Position numbers and translations under genes: made by a program | Source: a virus | Length of the DNA: 64,000 bases | Direction: 5' to 3' (one strand) | Virus genome (UHGV): UHGV-0371537 | Shown: piece by piece, positions 5,491-46,277 of the stretch | Position numbering within the stretch: position 1 is the stretch's first letter | Layout of the letters: the number at the start of each line of letters is the position of its first letter | Notes under the pieces: model-generated | Database searches by the model: none | Told to the model about the DNA's origin: nothing | Seen by the model: the letters and a program-made list of their open reading frames with translations, nothing else

Positions 5491-6702
5491 ATGGCCGATT
5501 TCCTGAGTCAATATACAGGTCAGCAGATTGATGCAATACTTGGTTCTGTTGACGACAAAGTAAGTAAGAATGATGTTATCAACGATTTCGCCGTTGATGA
5601 CCCGTTGTTTCCTCCGTCAGCTCATTTGACATATGAGCTGAAGCGTTCTGTGGATAATATCTACGACATACTGGAAAACAAAGTGATCCGCACCGACGGT
5701 GGTGAACAAACTATCAACGGGCGGAAGACTTTTGCCGCAGAAATCCGAGCCAATGCTGGTGTCAGTATCCCTACGGGGAAGAAACTTACCATCACAGATG
5801 AGCCAGTTGATTCCACTGATGGCGTCAATCTGTCTATGCTGCGCAAGCACGGCGTGAGTGAAGACACTGCCGGGGTTAACTCTGGTCTGAAAATCGAGTT
5901 GTTACCTGGTGGCTACAACAAACTCACTTTCGATGGCACAAATCTGGCCACTTACTCTGGTACTGGTGTGCCAACTACCATGTTACTGGTGAGTGGAACC
6001 GACACTGTCAAGTACGACACATCTGCGTTTGTGACTTCTATCTTCAATGATACGCGTTTCAACGCTTATCTGAAGGTTGTTGATTATGATGCCGATATGT
6101 TGGATATCCAGTCTCAGTTCAACACTGTCAACACCACTCTGGCTGCGAAGGTCAACACGTCGACTTACAACTCCAAGATGTCTAGCCTGGACACCAGTAT
6201 ACTGGATCTGACGAACAACAAAGTGAACGTCAGTACGTATAACACGAAGATGGCGGCGTTGGACAGTTCCATCAGTGGCATTCAGAGTGATATCGGCACG
6301 ATCAATACCACGTTGTCTGGAAAGGTCAACACATCGACCTACAACGCCAAAATGACAAGCCTGGACGCCGACATTGCTGCCCGTGTGAAGATCGGGAAGA
6401 CCAACCCAAGCGGTATCACTGTCTCTGCTTCTGGGAACTCTGCGTTGCCCGACTTCGATTTGGTGAACCTTTGCCAGGTGTTGATCAGTGCACAATGGGG
6501 TACAGGCAACGTCGTGGATACGTACCGCGTGACGATCACCCGTGACGGGACTATCAAGTCTGAGCTGTTGGTACAGAAGTCCACTTCCGGTACGGTGACA
6601 TTCGCGGGTTCTGTAGTGTCTTCAAAACTTCGTTTGACGATAACAAATGCGAACACGACGACTGCTTGCTCCGTTGACTACAATCTAGTCGCTTCTTTCT
6701 AA
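5491..6702 (+). CDS. fibre-like structural protein with three tandem ~30-aa repeats
   Basis: Repeats of the form NT.NTTL..KVNTSTYN.KM..LD..I between aa ~204-298 (nt ~6100-6390); Ser/Thr/Asn-rich; sits in the tail-fibre module. Confidence 0.6.
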   Translation: MADFLSQYTGQQIDAILGSVDDKVSKNDVINDFAVDDPLFPPSAHLTYELKRSVDNIYDILENKVIRTDGGEQTINGRKTFAAEIRANAGVSIPTGKKLTITDEPVDSTDGVNLSMLRKHGVSEDTAGVNSGLKIELLPGGYNKLTFDGTNLATYSGTGVPTTMLLVSGTDTVKYDTSAFVTSIFNDTRFNAYLKVVDYDADMLDIQSQFNTVNTTLAAKVNTSTYNSKMSSLDTSILDLTNNKVNVSTYNTKMAALDSSISGIQSDIGTINTTLSGKVNTSTYNAKMTSLDADIAARVKIGKTNPSGITVSASGNSALPDFDLVNLCQVLISAQWGTGNVVDTYRVTITRDGTIKSELLVQKSTSGTVTFAGSVVSSKLRLTITNANTTTACSVDYNLVASF

Positions 6703-37161: not shown

Positions 37162-37190
37162 TAATTAAAACAATGGCTTACGTCCTAACA

Positions 37191-37220
37191 AACCCCGCTT
37201 CGGCGGGGTTTTTGTTTGTT
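37191..37220 (+). terminator. rho-independent terminator after the major capsid gene, third exact copy
   Basis: AACCCCGCTTCGGCGGGGTT followed by TTTGTTTGTT. Confidence 0.75.
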
Positions 37221-37268
37221 CATAATACCAAACAGGTTATACTAGATACCATACGAAGGAGAACAATT

Positions 37269-38741
37269 ATGTATCAGGTAATCTGTAGTGTCTGTCATGA
37301 ACAGTTCAAAGCATCCAGGAAAGATAAGAAATTTTGTTCAGATGGTTGTAAAACGTTTTCTAGCAACACATTGAAAAATCTATCACCGGAATTTGTTGCT
37401 GATGCGACGTGCCTTTCGGATGAAGAATCTTATCGTCAATTTTTCCATAAACACATGTTCACTAAGAACAATAAATTGGATATTCAGAAATGCAAATCTA
37501 ATTTGTTAATGAAGCACATCAGATTGGACCTGTTGATATTTGCCAACGCCCATAACACCCTACAAGATCTGGCCTGTAAAGTCACAGCATGGTTACACAA
37601 TAGAACCGTGAAAATGTGCCCTGTGTGTTCCAAAGAAACCAACTTTTACATCAATGACAAAGATTACAGAACATATTGTTCCGAAGAATGTTATCAGATT
37701 TCTATGTGTAAAGGCGGGGTTGGTCGGAAAGCTATAGAGGCTTCAAATATATCCAAATATGGGAGCTGCTCTACACTACAACTACCTGGTGTGAGGAAGA
37801 AGGCGTTGATAACATTACAAGAACGTTATGGTGTTGACAATCCCATGAAAAACTCGATCATATTGAAACGTGCATTGTTTAACAATGGTTCTGTCAGGAA
37901 TAAGAAATCTTCTTATGAAAAAGAAATATCCGAGTTCCTCACCTCAATAGGAGTTGTGAACAAGGTTTCTAATTACAGTATATTGTCAGGCAAACAATTG
38001 GATATCTACTGCCCGGAACACAAACTTGCAATAGAATTCAATGGGTTGTACTGGCATTCAGAAGTTTTTAAAGAAAAACGGTATCATCTAGAAAAGACTG
38101 AAATGTGTGAATCTCAGGGTATCCAGTTGATCCATATTTGGGAAGACGAATGGGCTGAGAAACAGGATGTGGTCAAATCTCTTCTGAAGGCAAAACTCGG
38201 CATTAAAACGCCTGTCTCATACGCTCGCCAACATAAAGTTGTTTGGGGTAATATAAACGGTGTGAGGGAGTTTCTAGACGCCCATCATATACAAGGTTCC
38301 GTGTCGTCCACCCACCACTTATCGCTAATTGATAAGGCTGGTGTGATACAGGCCGTGATGTTGTTTACCAAAAGGAAAGATGGCCTGGAATTAGTCAGAT
38401 TTGCCTCTAATGATTGCCACGGGGCGTTCAGTAAACTTCTATCGCACTTCAGAAGGAAATTTGTTGGTGTCCCAATCTATTCTTTTGGCGACAGGTGTGT
38501 CGTAAGCAGGCTGTCGAACATTTACCTATCCCACAGGTTCATAGAAGAGGAAGTACAGAAGCCGGATTACAAATATCACAAGCCTGGTACATTTATGCGT
38601 GAGCACAAGTTCGGTTTCAGAAAAGATTCATTTGCTCGGATGGGTTATGACATAGAAGGCAAAACAGAAAGCCAGTTAGCAACCGAAGCCGGGCTGGTCA
38701 GGATTTGGAATTGTGGTCTGATCAAATATACCTTGAACTAA
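37269..38741 (+). CDS. freestanding homing-endonuclease-like protein with zinc fingers and a Vsr-like PD-(D/E)xK domain
   Basis: LAIEFNGLYWHSE matches the Vsr/DUF559 signature; CxxC/CxxxC clusters at the N-terminus; track start 37173 would read through the terminator at 37191. Confidence 0.65.
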   Translation: MYQVICSVCHEQFKASRKDKKFCSDGCKTFSSNTLKNLSPEFVADATCLSDEESYRQFFHKHMFTKNNKLDIQKCKSNLLMKHIRLDLLIFANAHNTLQDLACKVTAWLHNRTVKMCPVCSKETNFYINDKDYRTYCSEECYQISMCKGGVGRKAIEASNISKYGSCSTLQLPGVRKKALITLQERYGVDNPMKNSIILKRALFNNGSVRNKKSSYEKEISEFLTSIGVVNKVSNYSILSGKQLDIYCPEHKLAIEFNGLYWHSEVFKEKRYHLEKTEMCESQGIQLIHIWEDEWAEKQDVVKSLLKAKLGIKTPVSYARQHKVVWGNINGVREFLDAHHIQGSVSSTHHLSLIDKAGVIQAVMLFTKRKDGLELVRFASNDCHGAFSKLLSHFRRKFVGVPIYSFGDRCVVSRLSNIYLSHRFIEEEVQKPDYKYHKPGTFMREHKFGFRKDSFARMGYDIEGKTESQLATEAGLVRIWNCGLIKYTLN

Positions 38742-40974: not shown

Positions 40975-41186
40975 CCTGTCATAAATAATCTGAGTTCACA
41001 CAGCGGAGATACATCATGTTTGTCGTCAATCTGTTCTGCTATATCTTCACGGCTTACTTCCTTGCAGCAGTAGCGCATGAGACGTATACTGATCTGAAGG
41101 AGGGCGAATACGCCGACTGGAAGGTCTATGCCAAGAAGTTCGCTCGCAAGTTCTGGTCCAACTTCGTTTACAAACTACCCTGATCC

Positions 41187-41217
41187 CTAAATACCCCCAT
41201 CATCCATGGGGGTATTT
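41187..41217 (+). promoter_or_regulatory. late-promoter-like CTAAATA plus perfect 12-bp hairpin
   Basis: AAATACCCCCAT (41189-41200) pairs with ATGGGGGTATTT (41206-41217); ATG 41222. Confidence 0.5.
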
Positions 41218-41221
41218 TCTT

Positions 41222-41950
41222 ATGAACGCACAGATCTATGACGCCCTTGAGCAGGGTAACGCATTTAACAATCCTCTCCCGTCCCTCAGCAGCACGTCAC
41301 AGGGTTTAATCACCAGTGGTAAGGCGACTACAGCTTCACTGGCTAACACAGGCGATACGCAAATCCAGGGCGCTCTGACGGCAGGTGGGCTTACCACAGC
41401 CAAACTGAACGAAGCAACCACTATGTTCAACTCTGCAGGTACGAGCCTCACCACCCTGAACAACTATGGTGACCAGACTGTCAGTGAAGCATATTCTCGG
41501 ATCGGGACTTCTGTTTCTTACAAATCTGGCCTGAAATCCATAGAGCGCGAGCCAACGAATTGTGATCTGATCAACAATGCATTCGGTGTCATTCAGACCC
41601 TTGGACGCCAGTGGATCGGTGCCATGGAGACCGCTCTCAGCACTGTCACGGCAAAAATGACCGAACTAGCCGAATTAGTAGCGCAGGGTGTGAGCGCAGG
41701 CCTGGCAAAGATCCAGGCGCTGGCTGCTGAGGTCACCGGGTACGTCAACACTGCCATAACTCAGGTCTCCCAGATAGCCCAGGATATTACGAGCGGTATC
41801 GCGGCAGAGCTAGCCCACATACAAGACATGGTTAGCAAGTGTCTGAACTTCTCATTTGCTAACGTCCTGTCTGAGTGGGCTAAAGATCTATGTGCTGGTG
41901 GTGTTATCAACAACATCGGTTCAGATAATCTCAAGAGTGCGCTGAAGTAA
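41222..41950 (+). CDS. late-expressed hypothetical protein (242 aa), possibly structural
   Basis: CTAAATA at 41187 followed by a perfect 12-bp hairpin; Ala/Thr/Ser-rich. Confidence 0.55.
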   Translation: MNAQIYDALEQGNAFNNPLPSLSSTSQGLITSGKATTASLANTGDTQIQGALTAGGLTTAKLNEATTMFNSAGTSLTTLNNYGDQTVSEAYSRIGTSVSYKSGLKSIEREPTNCDLINNAFGVIQTLGRQWIGAMETALSTVTAKMTELAELVAQGVSAGLAKIQALAAEVTGYVNTAITQVSQIAQDITSGIAAELAHIQDMVSKCLNFSFANVLSEWAKDLCAGGVINNIGSDNLKSALK

Positions 41951-42592
41951 TCAACGCTCCCTCGCCGGAAGAACTCCCACTGGCTCGATACCATCCAACA
42001 GTAGGGAGTTCACACCCACATTACTCAGTCTAATCCAGATCGTTCCCCCTGGGTTAACTTCAAAGATATTCATCTCATTCCCAACTGCGTCGTTGTTGAC
42101 AAACACACCCTGGGTTGCGATTCGTACTGGTTTATCTGAGTCATTCATGATTTTGAACGTCACGATTATATCCGATGTTGTACCCAGTCGCCCAACCATG
42201 TGTTGCTTCAGCTTGGCGTAGAATGATGGATTAAAAGTGATGATAATGCTGTTGTTCTGAGAGTAATAAATACTTGCTGATAGGTATGGAATCTTCCCTT
42301 CGTCGCCACGCCGCAGGAGGGGAATCGTGGTCTTCCAGTAAGGCTTGAGGGTGCTCGTGTTCTCCTCGAAGCAACCTAAAGGTACGAGCTTCTGGAAGGT
42401 CTGGAACTCTTGCACGATGATGTCCAGAATACCCTTGTTACAAGTGGGAACACTGGCCGACAACGTCACAGGTACGGTGCGTACTTCTGGGTTCCAGAGT
42501 TCGGAAACAGAAATTATTGGCGTGACAAAGATGCGACAGCTCGTGAGTAAGAGCATCGCGCATGCCAACAACAATCTACTGATCCCGCGCAT
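41951..42592 (-). CDS. putative lipoprotein (213 aa)
   Basis: MRGISRLLLACAMLLLTSC gives a signal peptide with LTSC lipobox; convergent with the 41222 gene; start at internal ATG fwd 42590-42592. Confidence 0.5.
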   Translation of the reverse strand: MRGISRLLLACAMLLLTSCRIFVTPIISVSELWNPEVRTVPVTLSASVPTCNKGILDIIVQEFQTFQKLVPLGCFEENTSTLKPYWKTTIPLLRRGDEGKIPYLSASIYYSQNNSIIITFNPSFYAKLKQHMVGRLGTTSDIIVTFKIMNDSDKPVRIATQGVFVNNDAVGNEMNIFEVNPGGTIWIRLSNVGVNSLLLDGIEPVGVLPARER

Positions 42593-42630
42593 CAGGGTCA
42601 CAAAATATCTCCACAGCAAAAGGTGCTATT

Positions 42631-43131
42631 ATGTCCGACGTACAATTCAAGAACGAAAACCCTAATTTTGCGGCGTCCGATAAGTGGCGTTTATCTATCG
42701 GAGACCTTGTACTCGTGTCCCGCAACATCCATGACTTCAGCATCCCTGGCTTGTATTCCGAGGGTATCGATGGTCCATCACCCGGTGACGTTCTCGTTTC
42801 CATATCTTCAGAACGTATCACATATGACCCCGTCGTATTTACTTTCGTAATCGATGAGGACTGGAAAACTTGGTTGGCGTTACACAACTGGATCCGCTCA
42901 AACGTCAAGCTGGACCAGCCTGTGAGCAAAGACATCACAATTGACTTGCTGGACAACCTCAATCGCCCCATCGGGCTGACTTTGGTGTTACAAGAATCAC
43001 GCCCAACTGCTCTTGACAACGTGTTGGTAGACGTGGATGCTGCTGTGCCTCAGCTGGTGTCGACTGTGACGTTCAAATTCCAGGAGATGGTGCCGACTCT
43101 TGTGAGCCGTGAGATAGATTCTAATCCGTGA
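42631..43131 (+). CDS. hypothetical protein (166 aa)
   Basis: ORF upstream of the UvsY-like gene. Confidence 0.5.
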   Translation: MSDVQFKNENPNFAASDKWRLSIGDLVLVSRNIHDFSIPGLYSEGIDGPSPGDVLVSISSERITYDPVVFTFVIDEDWKTWLALHNWIRSNVKLDQPVSKDITIDLLDNLNRPIGLTLVLQESRPTALDNVLVDVDAAVPQLVSTVTFKFQEMVPTLVSREIDSNP

Positions 43132-43173
43132 TGCGCGGTATAATTTTATGACATTGACAAGCTGGGATATTTT

Positions 43174-43626
43174 ATGAAAGAACAACTACAGACAATGGCA
43201 ACCGAGGATATCATGGACGAACTGGAGCCGCTGATAACAGTGGACCCAGAAGACATGAACCTTGACCAGATATCATTGAAGATTGGGCGCTCATGGATGG
43301 CCGTGCAGCGCCATTATCTGCGTGAAGGGCGTTATCTGGAATTCCTCAATGGACGCTTCCGGCAGATTGATCTTTACCTGCGCCGCTACTATGCAGGGGA
43401 GTTGCCACCGAATATCTATGCAGAACGCCCCCTGAAGGTTCGCCCCCTGAAGTCCGACCTGGACACATGGGTGAAAGCCGACGAAGACTATGTAGAATTG
43501 TCCGTTCTGCTACAAGAGCAGAAGGCAAAGGTCAAGTTTATTGAGACTTGTTTGGATCGTTTGAACAAGCTCGGCTACGAAGTGAAGAACGCCATAGATT
43601 GGCGTAAATACATGGATGGTTCATGA
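43174..43626 (+). CDS. uvsY: recombination mediator, T4 UvsY-like
   Basis: LYLRRYYAGE and C-terminal region resemble T4 UvsY; same module as the UvsW-like helicase. Confidence 0.55.
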   Translation: MKEQLQTMATEDIMDELEPLITVDPEDMNLDQISLKIGRSWMAVQRHYLREGRYLEFLNGRFRQIDLYLRRYYAGELPPNIYAERPLKVRPLKSDLDTWVKADEDYVELSVLLQEQKAKVKFIETCLDRLNKLGYEVKNAIDWRKYMDGS

Positions 43627-44372
43627 TGGCATCTCTCCAGGCTCTCAGAAAGCTGAACGACTTCGAAAATCGTCACTACACATTCCAGCAGTATGAACTC
43701 CCATACAAAGAACTGGAGTGTGTGACGACGGAGAATGGTCGACATTATGTGTCTCCGACTGGCGTCAAACTCACGTCTGTCACAACGATGCTGGGTCGAA
43801 CCGGAGACCATGAATGGCTCGAAGCCTGGAGGGAGAAGTTGGGCGCAGAGGCCGCCGATCTTGAGACCATGCGTTGTGCGGAACGTGGGGAGAAGCTGCA
43901 TCTTGCGTGTGAATTGTATTTGAAGAACCGCCCAATGAAAGAAGTGCTCGAGGCGGCTGGTGAATACATGTTCATGTTCAAGCAACTCTTCCCATACCTG
44001 AACAAGATGACCAAGATCTATGCTCAGGAGATTCCATTATATAGCGAAGTCCTTGGCCTCGCTGGGCGCGTAGACCTCATCGGGGTGTATGAGGGCAAAC
44101 CAGCCATAATCGACTTCAAGACCTCCAATGTAATGAAGACTCGGGGTATGATTGAGGACTACAGCATCCAGCTGTGTCTATACTCAGTCATGTTCCAACA
44201 GATGTTCGGCGTGAAGATCACCCGGTTGATAAACGTCATCGCCAACGAATCCTCTTTGAACCCAACTATCATCGAGTTCCATCGTGATGACATCCTGAGC
44301 AAGATGTTTGAGCGTGTCCGCCTGTACCATCGCATGGATAAAGAACAGAACGGAGTCTGGGCGAACCACTAA
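43623..44372 (+). CDS. PD-(D/E)xK nuclease-like protein (249 aa)
   Basis: GRVDLIGVYEGKPAIIDFKTS fits a D...(D/E).K core; sits between UvsY-like and UvsW-like genes. Confidence 0.45.
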   Translation: MMASLQALRKLNDFENRHYTFQQYELPYKELECVTTENGRHYVSPTGVKLTSVTTMLGRTGDHEWLEAWREKLGAEAADLETMRCAERGEKLHLACELYLKNRPMKEVLEAAGEYMFMFKQLFPYLNKMTKIYAQEIPLYSEVLGLAGRVDLIGVYEGKPAIIDFKTSNVMKTRGMIEDYSIQLCLYSVMFQQMFGVKITRLINVIANESSLNPTIIEFHRDDILSKMFERVRLYHRMDKEQNGVWANH

Positions 44373-44400: not shown

Positions 44401-45909
44401 ATGGCAGACGTTCAGATTGTTAAGGTTAACGAAGTCCGCATGCGTTGCATCGCAGATCTTTCTATCAGGGAAGAGCTGAACGATTACTTCAAATTCGAAG
44501 ACCCCAATTACACACCAAATCCATTCTCGAAATGGGATGGAATCGTTCGCCTTTTCACCAAGTCGTCCGGCCTCATCGATATCGGTCTCCTGTTCGAGGT
44601 TTTTAAATTCTGTAAGCATCACGGATACACAGTTGAATTGGACCCGGCGCTGAAGTACATACAGGACATCCCTGATGAAGAGATCTATGAATTCATCAAC
44701 AGCCTACACGCCAAAGTACGTACAGAAAATCATGAGTACATCGATGCGATCACCCGTGATTACCAGTTCGACACGATAGCCAAGGCGATGCGTCAAACCA
44801 GATGCGTCTGCGAACTGGCTACGAGTGCCGGGAAGTCCTTTGTTCTGTATGTCATGGCGCGGTACTACAGGCAACGCAGAGAAGCCCTAGAAAGCAATCT
44901 GAGGACGCTTATCGTGGTGCCGTCAATCCACCTGGTTACACAGCTGTACGACAACTTCGAAGAATACTCCCACGGCACTGACTGGAAGCCAGTTGTCCAC
45001 ACTCAGCTGATCTTTGAGGGGGCAACCAAGAACATCACCAAGCCGATTGTCATCAGTACCTGGCAGGGCATACAAGACCAACCGAAGGAGTGGTTCCACC
45101 AGTTTGGCGACATCGTTGTGGATGAAGTACATACATCCAAGTCCGAGAAGCTGTCCTACATCCTCAACAATTGTATCTACGCCGACCAGCGTCTGGGCGT
45201 GACGGGTACGCTGGCAAACACCAAAGTCGCTGGGCTTCAGGTGGTGGCTCACTTCGGCACTTATCACAAGATCATCACGGCTCGCGACCTTATCAATCTT
45301 GGGTACGCCACTGACATCAAGGTCAAGATGATCGAGCTGAAGCACACCATCGCTGACGCAATGACTCTTGACGGGGAGTACAGCAAGGAAATTGAATATC
45401 TTATCACCCATCAGTCGCGAAACGAAGTGATTGCGAAGATGGCGCTGAACCTCAAGGGGAATGTTGCTGTTATGTTCGAGCGTATTGACGCCCACATGAT
45501 GGTAGTGTATGAGATGCTGAGCGCAGTAAAGCCAAACGTGTTTGTCATCAACGGTGAAGTGAAGATCGAAGATCGTCGACGCATTCAGAAAGCGATGGAA
45601 GATGGCGAGGATATCACGTTGCTGGCTTCTTACGGGACAATGCAGCAGGGTGTTTCAATCAAGAAGTTGCATCACCTGGTACTGGCCCACCCGAGCAAGT
45701 CATATATCCGTGTCATACAGACATTGGGTCGTCTGATGCGTCAGCACTCCTCTAAGGATGTGGCATGGATCTGGGACTTAGTCGACAATGCGTCGTATAA
45801 AGGATCCCAGAACCACGCTGTGAGGCATTCGCAAGAGCGATACAAGTTCTATCTGTCTGAGCGCCACCCAGTAGAATTCATGAAAGTGGCGCTCGGTAAT
45901 CACGATTGA
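44401..45909 (+). CDS. uvsW: DNA/RNA helicase, T4 UvsW-like
   Basis: Walker A LATSAGKS, DEVH box, TWQGIQDQPKEWFHQFG and KKLHHLVLAH resemble T4 UvsW; 502 aa from ATG 44401 (track start 44308). Confidence 0.85.
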   Translation: MADVQIVKVNEVRMRCIADLSIREELNDYFKFEDPNYTPNPFSKWDGIVRLFTKSSGLIDIGLLFEVFKFCKHHGYTVELDPALKYIQDIPDEEIYEFINSLHAKVRTENHEYIDAITRDYQFDTIAKAMRQTRCVCELATSAGKSFVLYVMARYYRQRREALESNLRTLIVVPSIHLVTQLYDNFEEYSHGTDWKPVVHTQLIFEGATKNITKPIVISTWQGIQDQPKEWFHQFGDIVVDEVHTSKSEKLSYILNNCIYADQRLGVTGTLANTKVAGLQVVAHFGTYHKIITARDLINLGYATDIKVKMIELKHTIADAMTLDGEYSKEIEYLITHQSRNEVIAKMALNLKGNVAVMFERIDAHMMVVYEMLSAVKPNVFVINGEVKIEDRRRIQKAMEDGEDITLLASYGTMQQGVSIKKLHHLVLAHPSKSYIRVIQTLGRLMRQHSSKDVAWIWDLVDNASYKGSQNHAVRHSQERYKFYLSERHPVEFMKVALGNHD

Positions 45910-46277
45910 TCTTGGTTCACATAGGCGGGGGTTGCCTCGCCTTCTTCACCCGCTGCGCCGAACAATTTGTCCAAAGAAGCCAGGCACTGAGAATTCAGAT
46001 GTTCACTAATCGTGTCTTTCAACGTTCGTTCGCTGTCTAATTTGAACGGCAACACCTTCGCTTCAATGCCGTTTTCAAAGGTGACAACGCCGATGTACAG
46101 ACCAACTTTCATGCCTGTCATCAAGCCAAGAGGCACAAAGCGCGGCTCCGATGGTAAGTTCTTGTCTGACGCCAGCTGTGCCAGATAAACTGGAGTTCCG
46201 GTAACAAACTCTCCTGCGGTGAGGATGGCATCTGGCTTGCTGCATCCCACTGCGTACAATCCTACAAACTGTTTCAT
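45900..46277 (-). CDS. hypothetical protein (125 aa)
   Basis: Minus-strand ORF divergent from the sliding clamp gene. Confidence 0.45.
   Translation of the reverse strand: MKQFVGLYAVGCSKPDAILTAGEFVTGTPVYLAQLASDKNLPSEPRFVPLGLMTGMKVGLYIGVVTFENGIEAKVLPFKLDSERTLKDTISEHLNSQCLASLDKLFGAAGEEGEATPAYVNQDQS

Follow-up and report, generated by a model that had tools for sequence, protein, structure and literature searches.

Imm and Sp (spackle) of phage T4 are envelope exclusion factors whose action follows adsorption and is directed at DNA entry or at the tail lysozyme. TraT and Bor are outer-membrane lipoproteins of mobile elements that are expressed in the carrier cell and provide surface exclusion or serum resistance. 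In phage T5, the gene for the exclusion lipoprotein is located beside that for the receptor-binding protein (llp/oad). Llp binds FhuA and Rtp45 binds LptDE, and both are lipoproteins that, from the periplasmic side, prevent the same phage or its relatives from adsorbing or infecting (PMC9586334, PMC12685063). The exclusion lipoprotein Ltp of Streptococcus thermophilus phage TP-J34 is encoded in the lysogeny module (PMC3952083).

The DNA studied here is a stretch of 64,000 nucleotides from virus genome UHGV-0371537, and the window refers to this stretch at its full length. Sequence comparison assigns it to an Agtrevirus-like phage of the Ackermannviridae. A megablast search with positions 41000-44000 gave 45 full-length matches, all of them to Ackermannviridae and with identities of 80-90%; the best matches (~88%) were to Shigella phage Ag3 and to Salmonella phages SW16-7, SP-9-14, and SKML-39. 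The minus strand contains an ORF that extends from its first TTG over 41951..42619 in the ORF list, and the lipoprotein precursor encoded within it has the following features.

41951..42601, minus strand: coding sequence of the DUF7424 lipoprotein precursor, 216 aa (ORF list and sequence; Pfam; phrog_3832)
42608..42612, minus strand: Shine-Dalgarno sequence GGAGA, 6 nt ahead of the GTG (invariant among eight aligned Ackermannviridae)
42539..42601, minus strand: signal peptide, residues 1-21, with n-region R5/R9 and core LLLACAMLLL (sequence, hydropathy; like the N-termini in 81 family members)
42536..42547, minus strand: lipobox L19-T20-S21-C22 (Cys22 and Arg23 invariant in close homologues)
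42371..42442, minus strand: Cys54 (42442-42440) to Cys77 (42373-42371), predicted periplasmic disulfide pair (Cys conservation)

The gene starts with GTG (42601-42599) and stops with TGA (41953-41951). In the preliminary description the start had been placed at ATG 42592; this codon is in frame, but the start shifts by nine bases to the GTG three codons upstream, which is almost certainly the true one. The GTG is preferred because GGAGA lies 6 nt upstream of it, because both elements are invariant across the aligned Ackermannviridae, which represent six genera, and because Kuttervirus homologues have Ile, not Met, at the position of the ATG. The N-terminus of the protein is MTLMRGISRLLLACAMLLLTSC. 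The precursor opens with MTLMRGISR-LLLACAMLLL-TSC, i.e. with two positive charges (R5, R9) followed by a ten-residue hydrophobic core, and it has all elements of a lipoprotein precursor: a charged n-region, an h-region, and a lipobox ([LVI][ASTVI][GAS]C) within approximately 35 residues. Cys22 (42538-42536) is the predicted lipidated residue 1 of the mature lipoprotein, which has 195 aa and a mass of 21.7 kDa. The signal peptide and lipobox claimed earlier for the minus-strand ORF were thus borne out by the sequence, the invariance of Cys22, and the match to Pfam DUF7424, and the length given for the part after the lipobox (approximately 195 residues) was confirmed.

In Enterobacteriaceae, an Asp at position +2 keeps a lipoprotein in the inner membrane. 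The DUF7424 lipoprotein has Arg23 at +2, and Lol-dependent delivery to the outer membrane is therefore predicted. We infer from these signals that the protein is lipidated and sorted to the outer membrane. Cys54 and Cys77, invariant in two alignments and at least 90% conserved in the 81-sequence family alignment, would form a disulfide bond, and the conserved pair would fit an oxidising periplasmic location.

The protein matched Pfam DUF7424 (PF24199) with an E-value of 4.8e-59 and 199.9 bits over profile positions 2-196 of 196 (curated gathering threshold 27 bits), and phrog_3832 with an E-value of 1.4e-99. Among 18 homologues at 52-92% identity, Cys22, Arg23, Cys54, and Cys77 were invariant; in the 81-sequence family alignment, which reaches down to ~17% identity, the lipobox Cys was the sole invariant column, a conservation that is far beyond chance. 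A profile search of 1.84 billion representatives yielded 89 clusters, nearly all of 190-240 aa and starting with a lipobox; the clusters were defined at 50% identity (about 90 in total), and the lipobox was present in nearly all of 88 cluster representatives. Several GenBank records already annotate the gene as 'putative lipoprotein'. DUF7424 was not mentioned in the literature searched, and searches of the literature on Ackermannviridae combined with lipoprotein or superinfection exclusion found nothing on the gene. PADLOC-DB 2.0 gave 0 families at E ≤ 0.01, and sequence searches of NCBIfam and the PDB gave no matches. The AlphaFold model is of high confidence (pLDDT 90.8), and no close solved fold was found for it. 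DUF7424 is an already catalogued, uncharacterised family that most likely represents a new structural class among phage exclusion lipoproteins.

The DUF7424 lipoprotein resembles T5 Llp, Rtp45, and Cor in being a lipoprotein of a lytic phage and in its predicted topology, which equals theirs (periplasmic side of the outer membrane). It differs from them in size, in gene position, and in the likely nature of the receptor. Llp and Rtp45 have masses of 6-8 kDa, and the mature DUF7424 lipoprotein is approximately threefold larger. Llp-type genes adjoin the receptor-binding protein gene, whereas the DUF7424 gene adjoins gp3, and the receptors of the Llp type are outer-membrane proteins, whereas the primary receptors of Ackermannviridae are polysaccharides. 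Comparison with Llp, Rtp45, and Cor revealed no similarity in sequence or fold (the structures of Llp and Rtp45 are solved). T4 Imm and Sp offer a parallel in that they belong to a virulent, T4-related contractile-tailed phage. TraT is similar in size to the DUF7424 lipoprotein; however, DUF7424 has no Pfam match to TraT or Bor and is a core gene of virulent phages. Llp, Rtp45, Cor, Ltp, TraT, and the spanins are all unrelated to it.

The local gene order is major capsid, small ORFs, SLOG-domain protein, DUF7217, lipoprotein (on the opposite strand), gp3, UvsY, exonuclease, and helicase, and this is the order conserved in Ackermannviridae. The immediate surroundings of the lipoprotein gene comprise the following features.

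41222..41950, plus strand: DUF7217 virion protein, convergent neighbour (Pfam DUF7217, E 5.9e-98)
41939..41957, no strand assigned: weak 7-bp hairpin GCGCTGA-AGTAA-TCAACGC over both stop codons (sequence, folds)
42631..43131, plus strand: gp3-like tail completion/sheath stabiliser, divergent neighbour (phrog_45 tail tube, E 3e-31)

The lipoprotein and DUF7217 genes are convergent and their stop codons abut with 0 bases between them. The late-type motif CTAAATACCCC is present 35 nt upstream of the DUF7217 gene, at 41187 (CTAAATA 41187-41193). ORF129 of LIMEstone1 (25.03 kDa) was found in virions by mass spectrometry (PMC3296691) and is the DUF7217 orthologue by matching of masses. The neighbour had earlier been called a late structural-type gene, and the motif and the virion location of the orthologue agree with this. 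On the other side, the start codons of the lipoprotein and gp3 genes are only 29 nt apart; the gp3 annotation of the divergent neighbour is found in Ag3, SKML-39, and CAU_YEP3. The hairpin at the convergent junction gave fold z-scores of 0.15 and -0.97 and has no T-run on either strand, and a terminator scan called none at 41939..41957. In Ag3 and Magnus, a stem-loop or terminator is annotated at the equivalent junction.

Over more than 30 kb, the annotation of SKML-39 shows only two minus-strand genes, the lipoprotein gene and a 125-aa ORF, which in the window is located at 45900-46277 on the minus strand and overlaps the helicase stop. This ORF occurs in 272 Ackermannviridae records and evolves fast (31-46% identity between genera); its acidic C-terminal tail, EGE(A/P)TPAYV, is invariant. 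It had no family match in Pfam, NCBIfam, or PADLOC. As a second lipoprotein candidate it was rejected, the Cys of its lipobox-like AVGC12 not being conserved.

A tblastn search recovered the DUF7424 gene from 294 phage records, and in each it is divergent from gp3, the gene for tail completion. The hosts were Salmonella (164), Klebsiella (44), Escherichia (29), Dickeya (19), Serratia (10), Shigella (6), Erwinia (4), and Enterobacter (3). In all enterobacterial genera the counts equal those obtained for the adjacent gp3 gene, and the gene is therefore universal in the enterobacterial Ackermannviridae among the genomes searched. Vibrio, Aeromonas, and metagenomic relatives at 23-26% identity have it at the same position, divergent from a gp3-like gene. 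It diverges somewhat faster than gp3, UvsY, and exonuclease and broadly tracks the phage phylogeny. In the Ackermannviridae it is, on these comparisons, a vertically inherited core gene and not a variable accessory.

Some annotations in this group are incomplete. The records of two Serratia phages, 3M (locus L023, 1798-2106) and phiMAM1, annotate no more than the last 102 aa of DUF7424, and in Erwinia phage phiEa2809 the gene is uncalled (locus L024, about 1444-2091); tblastn revealed a full-length intact frame in both 3M and phiEa2809. Between the window and Ag3 (locus L002), amino acid identities for the genes around 41951-43131 amounted to 99% for the lipoprotein, 99% for UvsY, 84% for gp3, and 93% for DUF7217, a mosaicism that suggests recombination inside the cluster.

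In several P2/186-like prophage lineages, temperate DUF7424 relatives have the gene in the lysogeny module, co-oriented with the repressor; the window phage is virulent and has no lysogeny module. In six Pasteurellaceae-type P2-like prophages (L009-L014), the DUF7424 gene is convergent with tail gene D, and in four of them (L009, L010, L011, L013) it lies just downstream, on the same strand, of an HTH+Peptidase_S24 repressor gene. Repressor, BRCT-domain, and DUF7424 genes overlap by 4 bp in L009 and L010, and ~16 nt separate the repressor and DUF7424 genes in L011 and L013. The gene likewise follows an S24-type CI in two isolate genomes (L015, L019), and in metagenomic loci of two other subfamilies it follows a CI_repr+S24 repressor (L028) or an HTH+S24 repressor (L029-L031). 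In Haemophilus haemolyticus (L020) it is located between a 186-type cI (Phage_CI_repr + CI_C) and int. The arrangement is also seen in three gut-metagenome phages (L032-L034), where the 186-type cI ends at 6000, DUF7424 occupies 6001-6663, and int begins at 6666; the gene thus adjoins cI directly and is separated from int by 2 nt. A gene enclosed in this way by cI and int should be transcribed in the lysogen, and such a position is the signature of immunity, exclusion, or conversion cargo. In a Halomonas prophage, the DUF7424 gene occupies a classic moron site, after the tail-fibre genes and at the end of the prophage.

The position after cI or between cI and int is equivalent to that of Ltp in TP-J34. 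Ltp differs in having a Gram-positive host and a cytoplasmic-membrane anchor; its fold is unrelated to that of DUF7424, and no homology between the two proteins was found.

Nucleotide identity between L009 and L010 is 95-100% over the repressor and BRCT genes and over the first ~110 nt of DUF7424, signal peptide included; in the next ORF it is 92-96%. Over most of the mature domain of DUF7424, by contrast, it amounts to only 50-72%. Conflict systems typically show such a local allelic replacement, here confined to the mature domain, in their specificity determinants. Superinfection-exclusion genes typically combine this kind of divergence with a position behind the repressor. All phage contexts examined, a small sample, were contractile-tailed (Ackermannviridae, P2/186-like, or with a Mu-like baseplate), which is suggestive. 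One gene of the repressor-side slot encodes a DUF3800 protein with a match to PDC-M04A, a candidate defence protein in PADLOC. This slot behind the repressor of the Pasteurellaceae P2-like prophages (L009 7495-8004 and 8678-9429; L014 8890-9759) holds several further genes, coding for a BRCT-domain protein (weak match to PADLOC PDC-S48), a conserved 74-aa ORF, and a winged-helix protein beside the DUF3800 protein. By its gene content the slot looks like a variable defence or cargo island.

The heptamer CTAAATA occurs in 12 copies in the window versus 3.96 expected; 11 of them are on the plus strand, and the motif is often extended to CTAAATACCCC.

2825, 6711, 9799, 12337, 17447, 23960, 24703, 28978, 34841, 41187, 44369, plus strand: CTAAATA (motif count)

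The copies whose context was read lie ~30-40 nt before the next start (e.g. of DUF7217, the helicase, and large upstream ORFs). CTAAATA is probably the late-promoter motif of the window phage, in place of the T4 late motif TATAAATA, of which the window has one copy only. Upstream of the lipoprotein gene, the minus strand of the window showed neither a sigma-70-like promoter nor a CTAAATA late motif. With the gap of 29 nt to gp3, any promoter of the lipoprotein gene must fall in the gp3 coding sequence. A CATAAT that overlaps the gp3 start was rejected as a promoter, as it lacks a -35 element and is not conserved. No transcriptome papers on Ackermannviridae were found in the literature searched.

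The gp3 gene has no CTAAATA of its own, and the nearest late motif on its strand is that at 41187. With only the weak hairpin at 41939-41957 in between, late transcripts may run on to gp3 and pass antisense through the entire lipoprotein gene. A one-mismatch variant, CAAAATATCTCC, is present at 42596-42607. It overlaps with the start codon of the lipoprotein gene and lies 35 nt ahead of the ATG of gp3, but was not conserved in other genera.

The octamer TTCAATAA is also enriched in the window, with 12 copies versus 2.4 expected.

38750, 39745, 39767, 53017, 53328, 56734, 62246, plus strand: octamer TTCAATAA (motif count)
714, 1941, 2580, 28616, 63846, minus strand: octamer TTCAATAA (motif count)

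Many copies fall into the gaps that separate ORFs, and TTTACTTC precedes several of them; none is present upstream of the lipoprotein gene. The octamer is possibly an early/middle promoter element or a regulator-binding element.

The preliminary description had proposed superinfection exclusion or receptor masking. An exclusion role is plausible, with indirect, comparative support from the lysogeny-operon position and the mature-domain divergence of temperate relatives; masking of the primary receptor is unlikely. Ackermannviridae adsorb by variable tailspikes to surface polysaccharides (O-antigen or capsule), yet the lipoprotein, which would face the periplasm, is a conserved core gene product, and masking of the primary receptor is disfavoured for this reason. 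The protein would more probably act on a conserved secondary receptor or on penetration after adsorption. In the mechanism that we propose, the DUF7424 lipoprotein would be made inside the infected cell and, as predicted, sorted to the outer membrane, where its disulfide-stabilised, beta-rich domain of 21.7 kDa would face the periplasm. Once adsorbed, incoming contractile-tailed phages would depend on a conserved component of the envelope, and it is this component that the domain would occupy or alter, either a secondary receptor or a component of the step that penetrates the outer membrane and periplasm. Superinfecting phages would be excluded, and the loss of progeny on envelope debris might be limited.

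That the gene encodes an outer-membrane lipoprotein excluding superinfecting phages through such a conserved post-adsorption target is our tentative reading, and we give it slightly less than an even chance. Several findings speak against exclusion: in the Ackermannviridae the gene is not beside receptor-binding genes, and it is a vertically inherited core gene instead of a variable accessory; the protein has no homology to any characterised exclusion lipoprotein and a larger mature part, and PADLOC contains no model that matches it. The broader proposition, that DUF7424 is a new, structurally distinct family of exclusion lipoproteins specific to contractile-tailed phages, carried as immunity-operon cargo by P2/186-like phages and as a core gene by Ackermannviridae, and blocking DNA delivery at a conserved stage in the outer membrane or periplasm, not the primary receptor, is doubtful when taken as a whole. 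If true, DUF7424 would add a large-domain class beside the small lipoproteins of the Llp/Rtp45 type, and the family is a candidate route to a further target in the Gram-negative envelope at which phages can be excluded. Phage cocktails for therapy and biocontrol make wide use of Ackermannviridae (Vi01, CBA120, LIMEstone, and Agtrevirus-type), and a universal exclusion factor would, if true, shape the interference between cocktail members in co-infected cells.

Cargo of lysogeny operons can also be host fitness factors. The DUF7424 lipoprotein might accordingly be a Bor/TraT-like envelope fitness or lysogenic-conversion factor, directed against complement, bacteriocins, tailocins, or envelope stress, that lytic phages keep to preserve the infected cell. 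The position in lysogeny operons would suit any cargo expressed from a prophage, and in two loci (L017, beside TehB, and L039) DUF7424 stands in an apparently non-prophage chromosomal context. Such a function is hard to square with the universal retention of the gene in strictly virulent Ackermannviridae; Pfam showed no similarity to the TraT or Bor families, and the replacement of the mature domain alone is more typical of conflict genes. We regard a fitness function as improbable.

An envelope role in the late cycle of the phage itself, in lysis timing, in outer-membrane integrity, or in neutralising envelope fragments against loss of progeny, would go well with the status of a core gene, and the last of these functions overlaps with a second role proposed for T5 Llp. 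CTAAATA points into the DUF7424 gene in Vibrio phage K476 and in the metagenomic locus L037, whereas it faces gp3 instead in Aeromonas phage TSW001 and in L040, and in the window no late motif is present on the lipoprotein strand. Late expression, if true in K476 and L037, would argue against early exclusion and would better suit the protection of progeny from debris. The gene is not near the lysis genes, however, and its place in temperate relatives is the lysogeny module rather than a lysis cassette. A late-cycle role has in our estimate only a small chance of being correct.

The position of the gene between two virion-protein genes could suggest a virion or tail-assembly protein acting with gp3 and DUF7217. 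The export signal with its lipobox, the opposite strand, and the missing late motif contradict this, as do the virion proteomes. Mass spectrometry of LIMEstone1 virions lists ORF127 and ORF129, but not the ORF between them (PMC3296691). ORF127 corresponds to gp3 and ORF129 to DUF7217, and the lipoprotein homologue should by gene order be ORF128; both neighbours were thus detected and the lipoprotein was not. The Sajous1 homologue, gp167, is absent from the published Sajous1 virion list, and no lipoprotein peptides were found in the part of the Sajous1 supplement that was searched, an absence that is weak evidence. A cluster in the Sajous1 virion list ('gp214 tail completion, gp215-217 hypothetical') was considered as the lipoprotein locus and rejected by gene numbering: the numbers of the paper are those of GenBank (MCP gp157, tail tube gp151), where gp214-217 are other genes near 151-155 kb. 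A virion protein is contradicted by anatomy and proteomes and is highly improbable. An outer-membrane-type lipoprotein in a lytic phage of a Gram-negative host might also be taken for a spanin component, either an o-spanin or a unimolecular spanin, with a role in membrane fusion at lysis; this is similarly contradicted and hardly credible. The mature part is a confidently modelled globular domain of 195 aa, unlike a short proline-rich peptide. The gene is flanked by gp3 and DUF7217, and no i-spanin gene lies next to it or within it. The C-terminus, GIEPVGVLPARER, is not hydrophobic, and a C-terminal transmembrane segment is missing. Temperate relatives have DUF7424 in the lysogeny module, and related genomes have separate spanins annotated at other places (PMC10892097).

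The interval between the major capsid and lipoprotein genes contains one further ORF of note, which encodes 522 aa (37173-38741, plus strand) and directly follows the major capsid gene. It showed weak matches to the Vsr/DUF559/MTES_1575 endonuclease fold, is missing at the equivalent position in Ag3 and SKML-39, and is probably an insertion of the homing-endonuclease type. In Vibrio phage K476, an annotated homing endonuclease adjoins the major capsid gene in the same capsid-to-lipoprotein interval.
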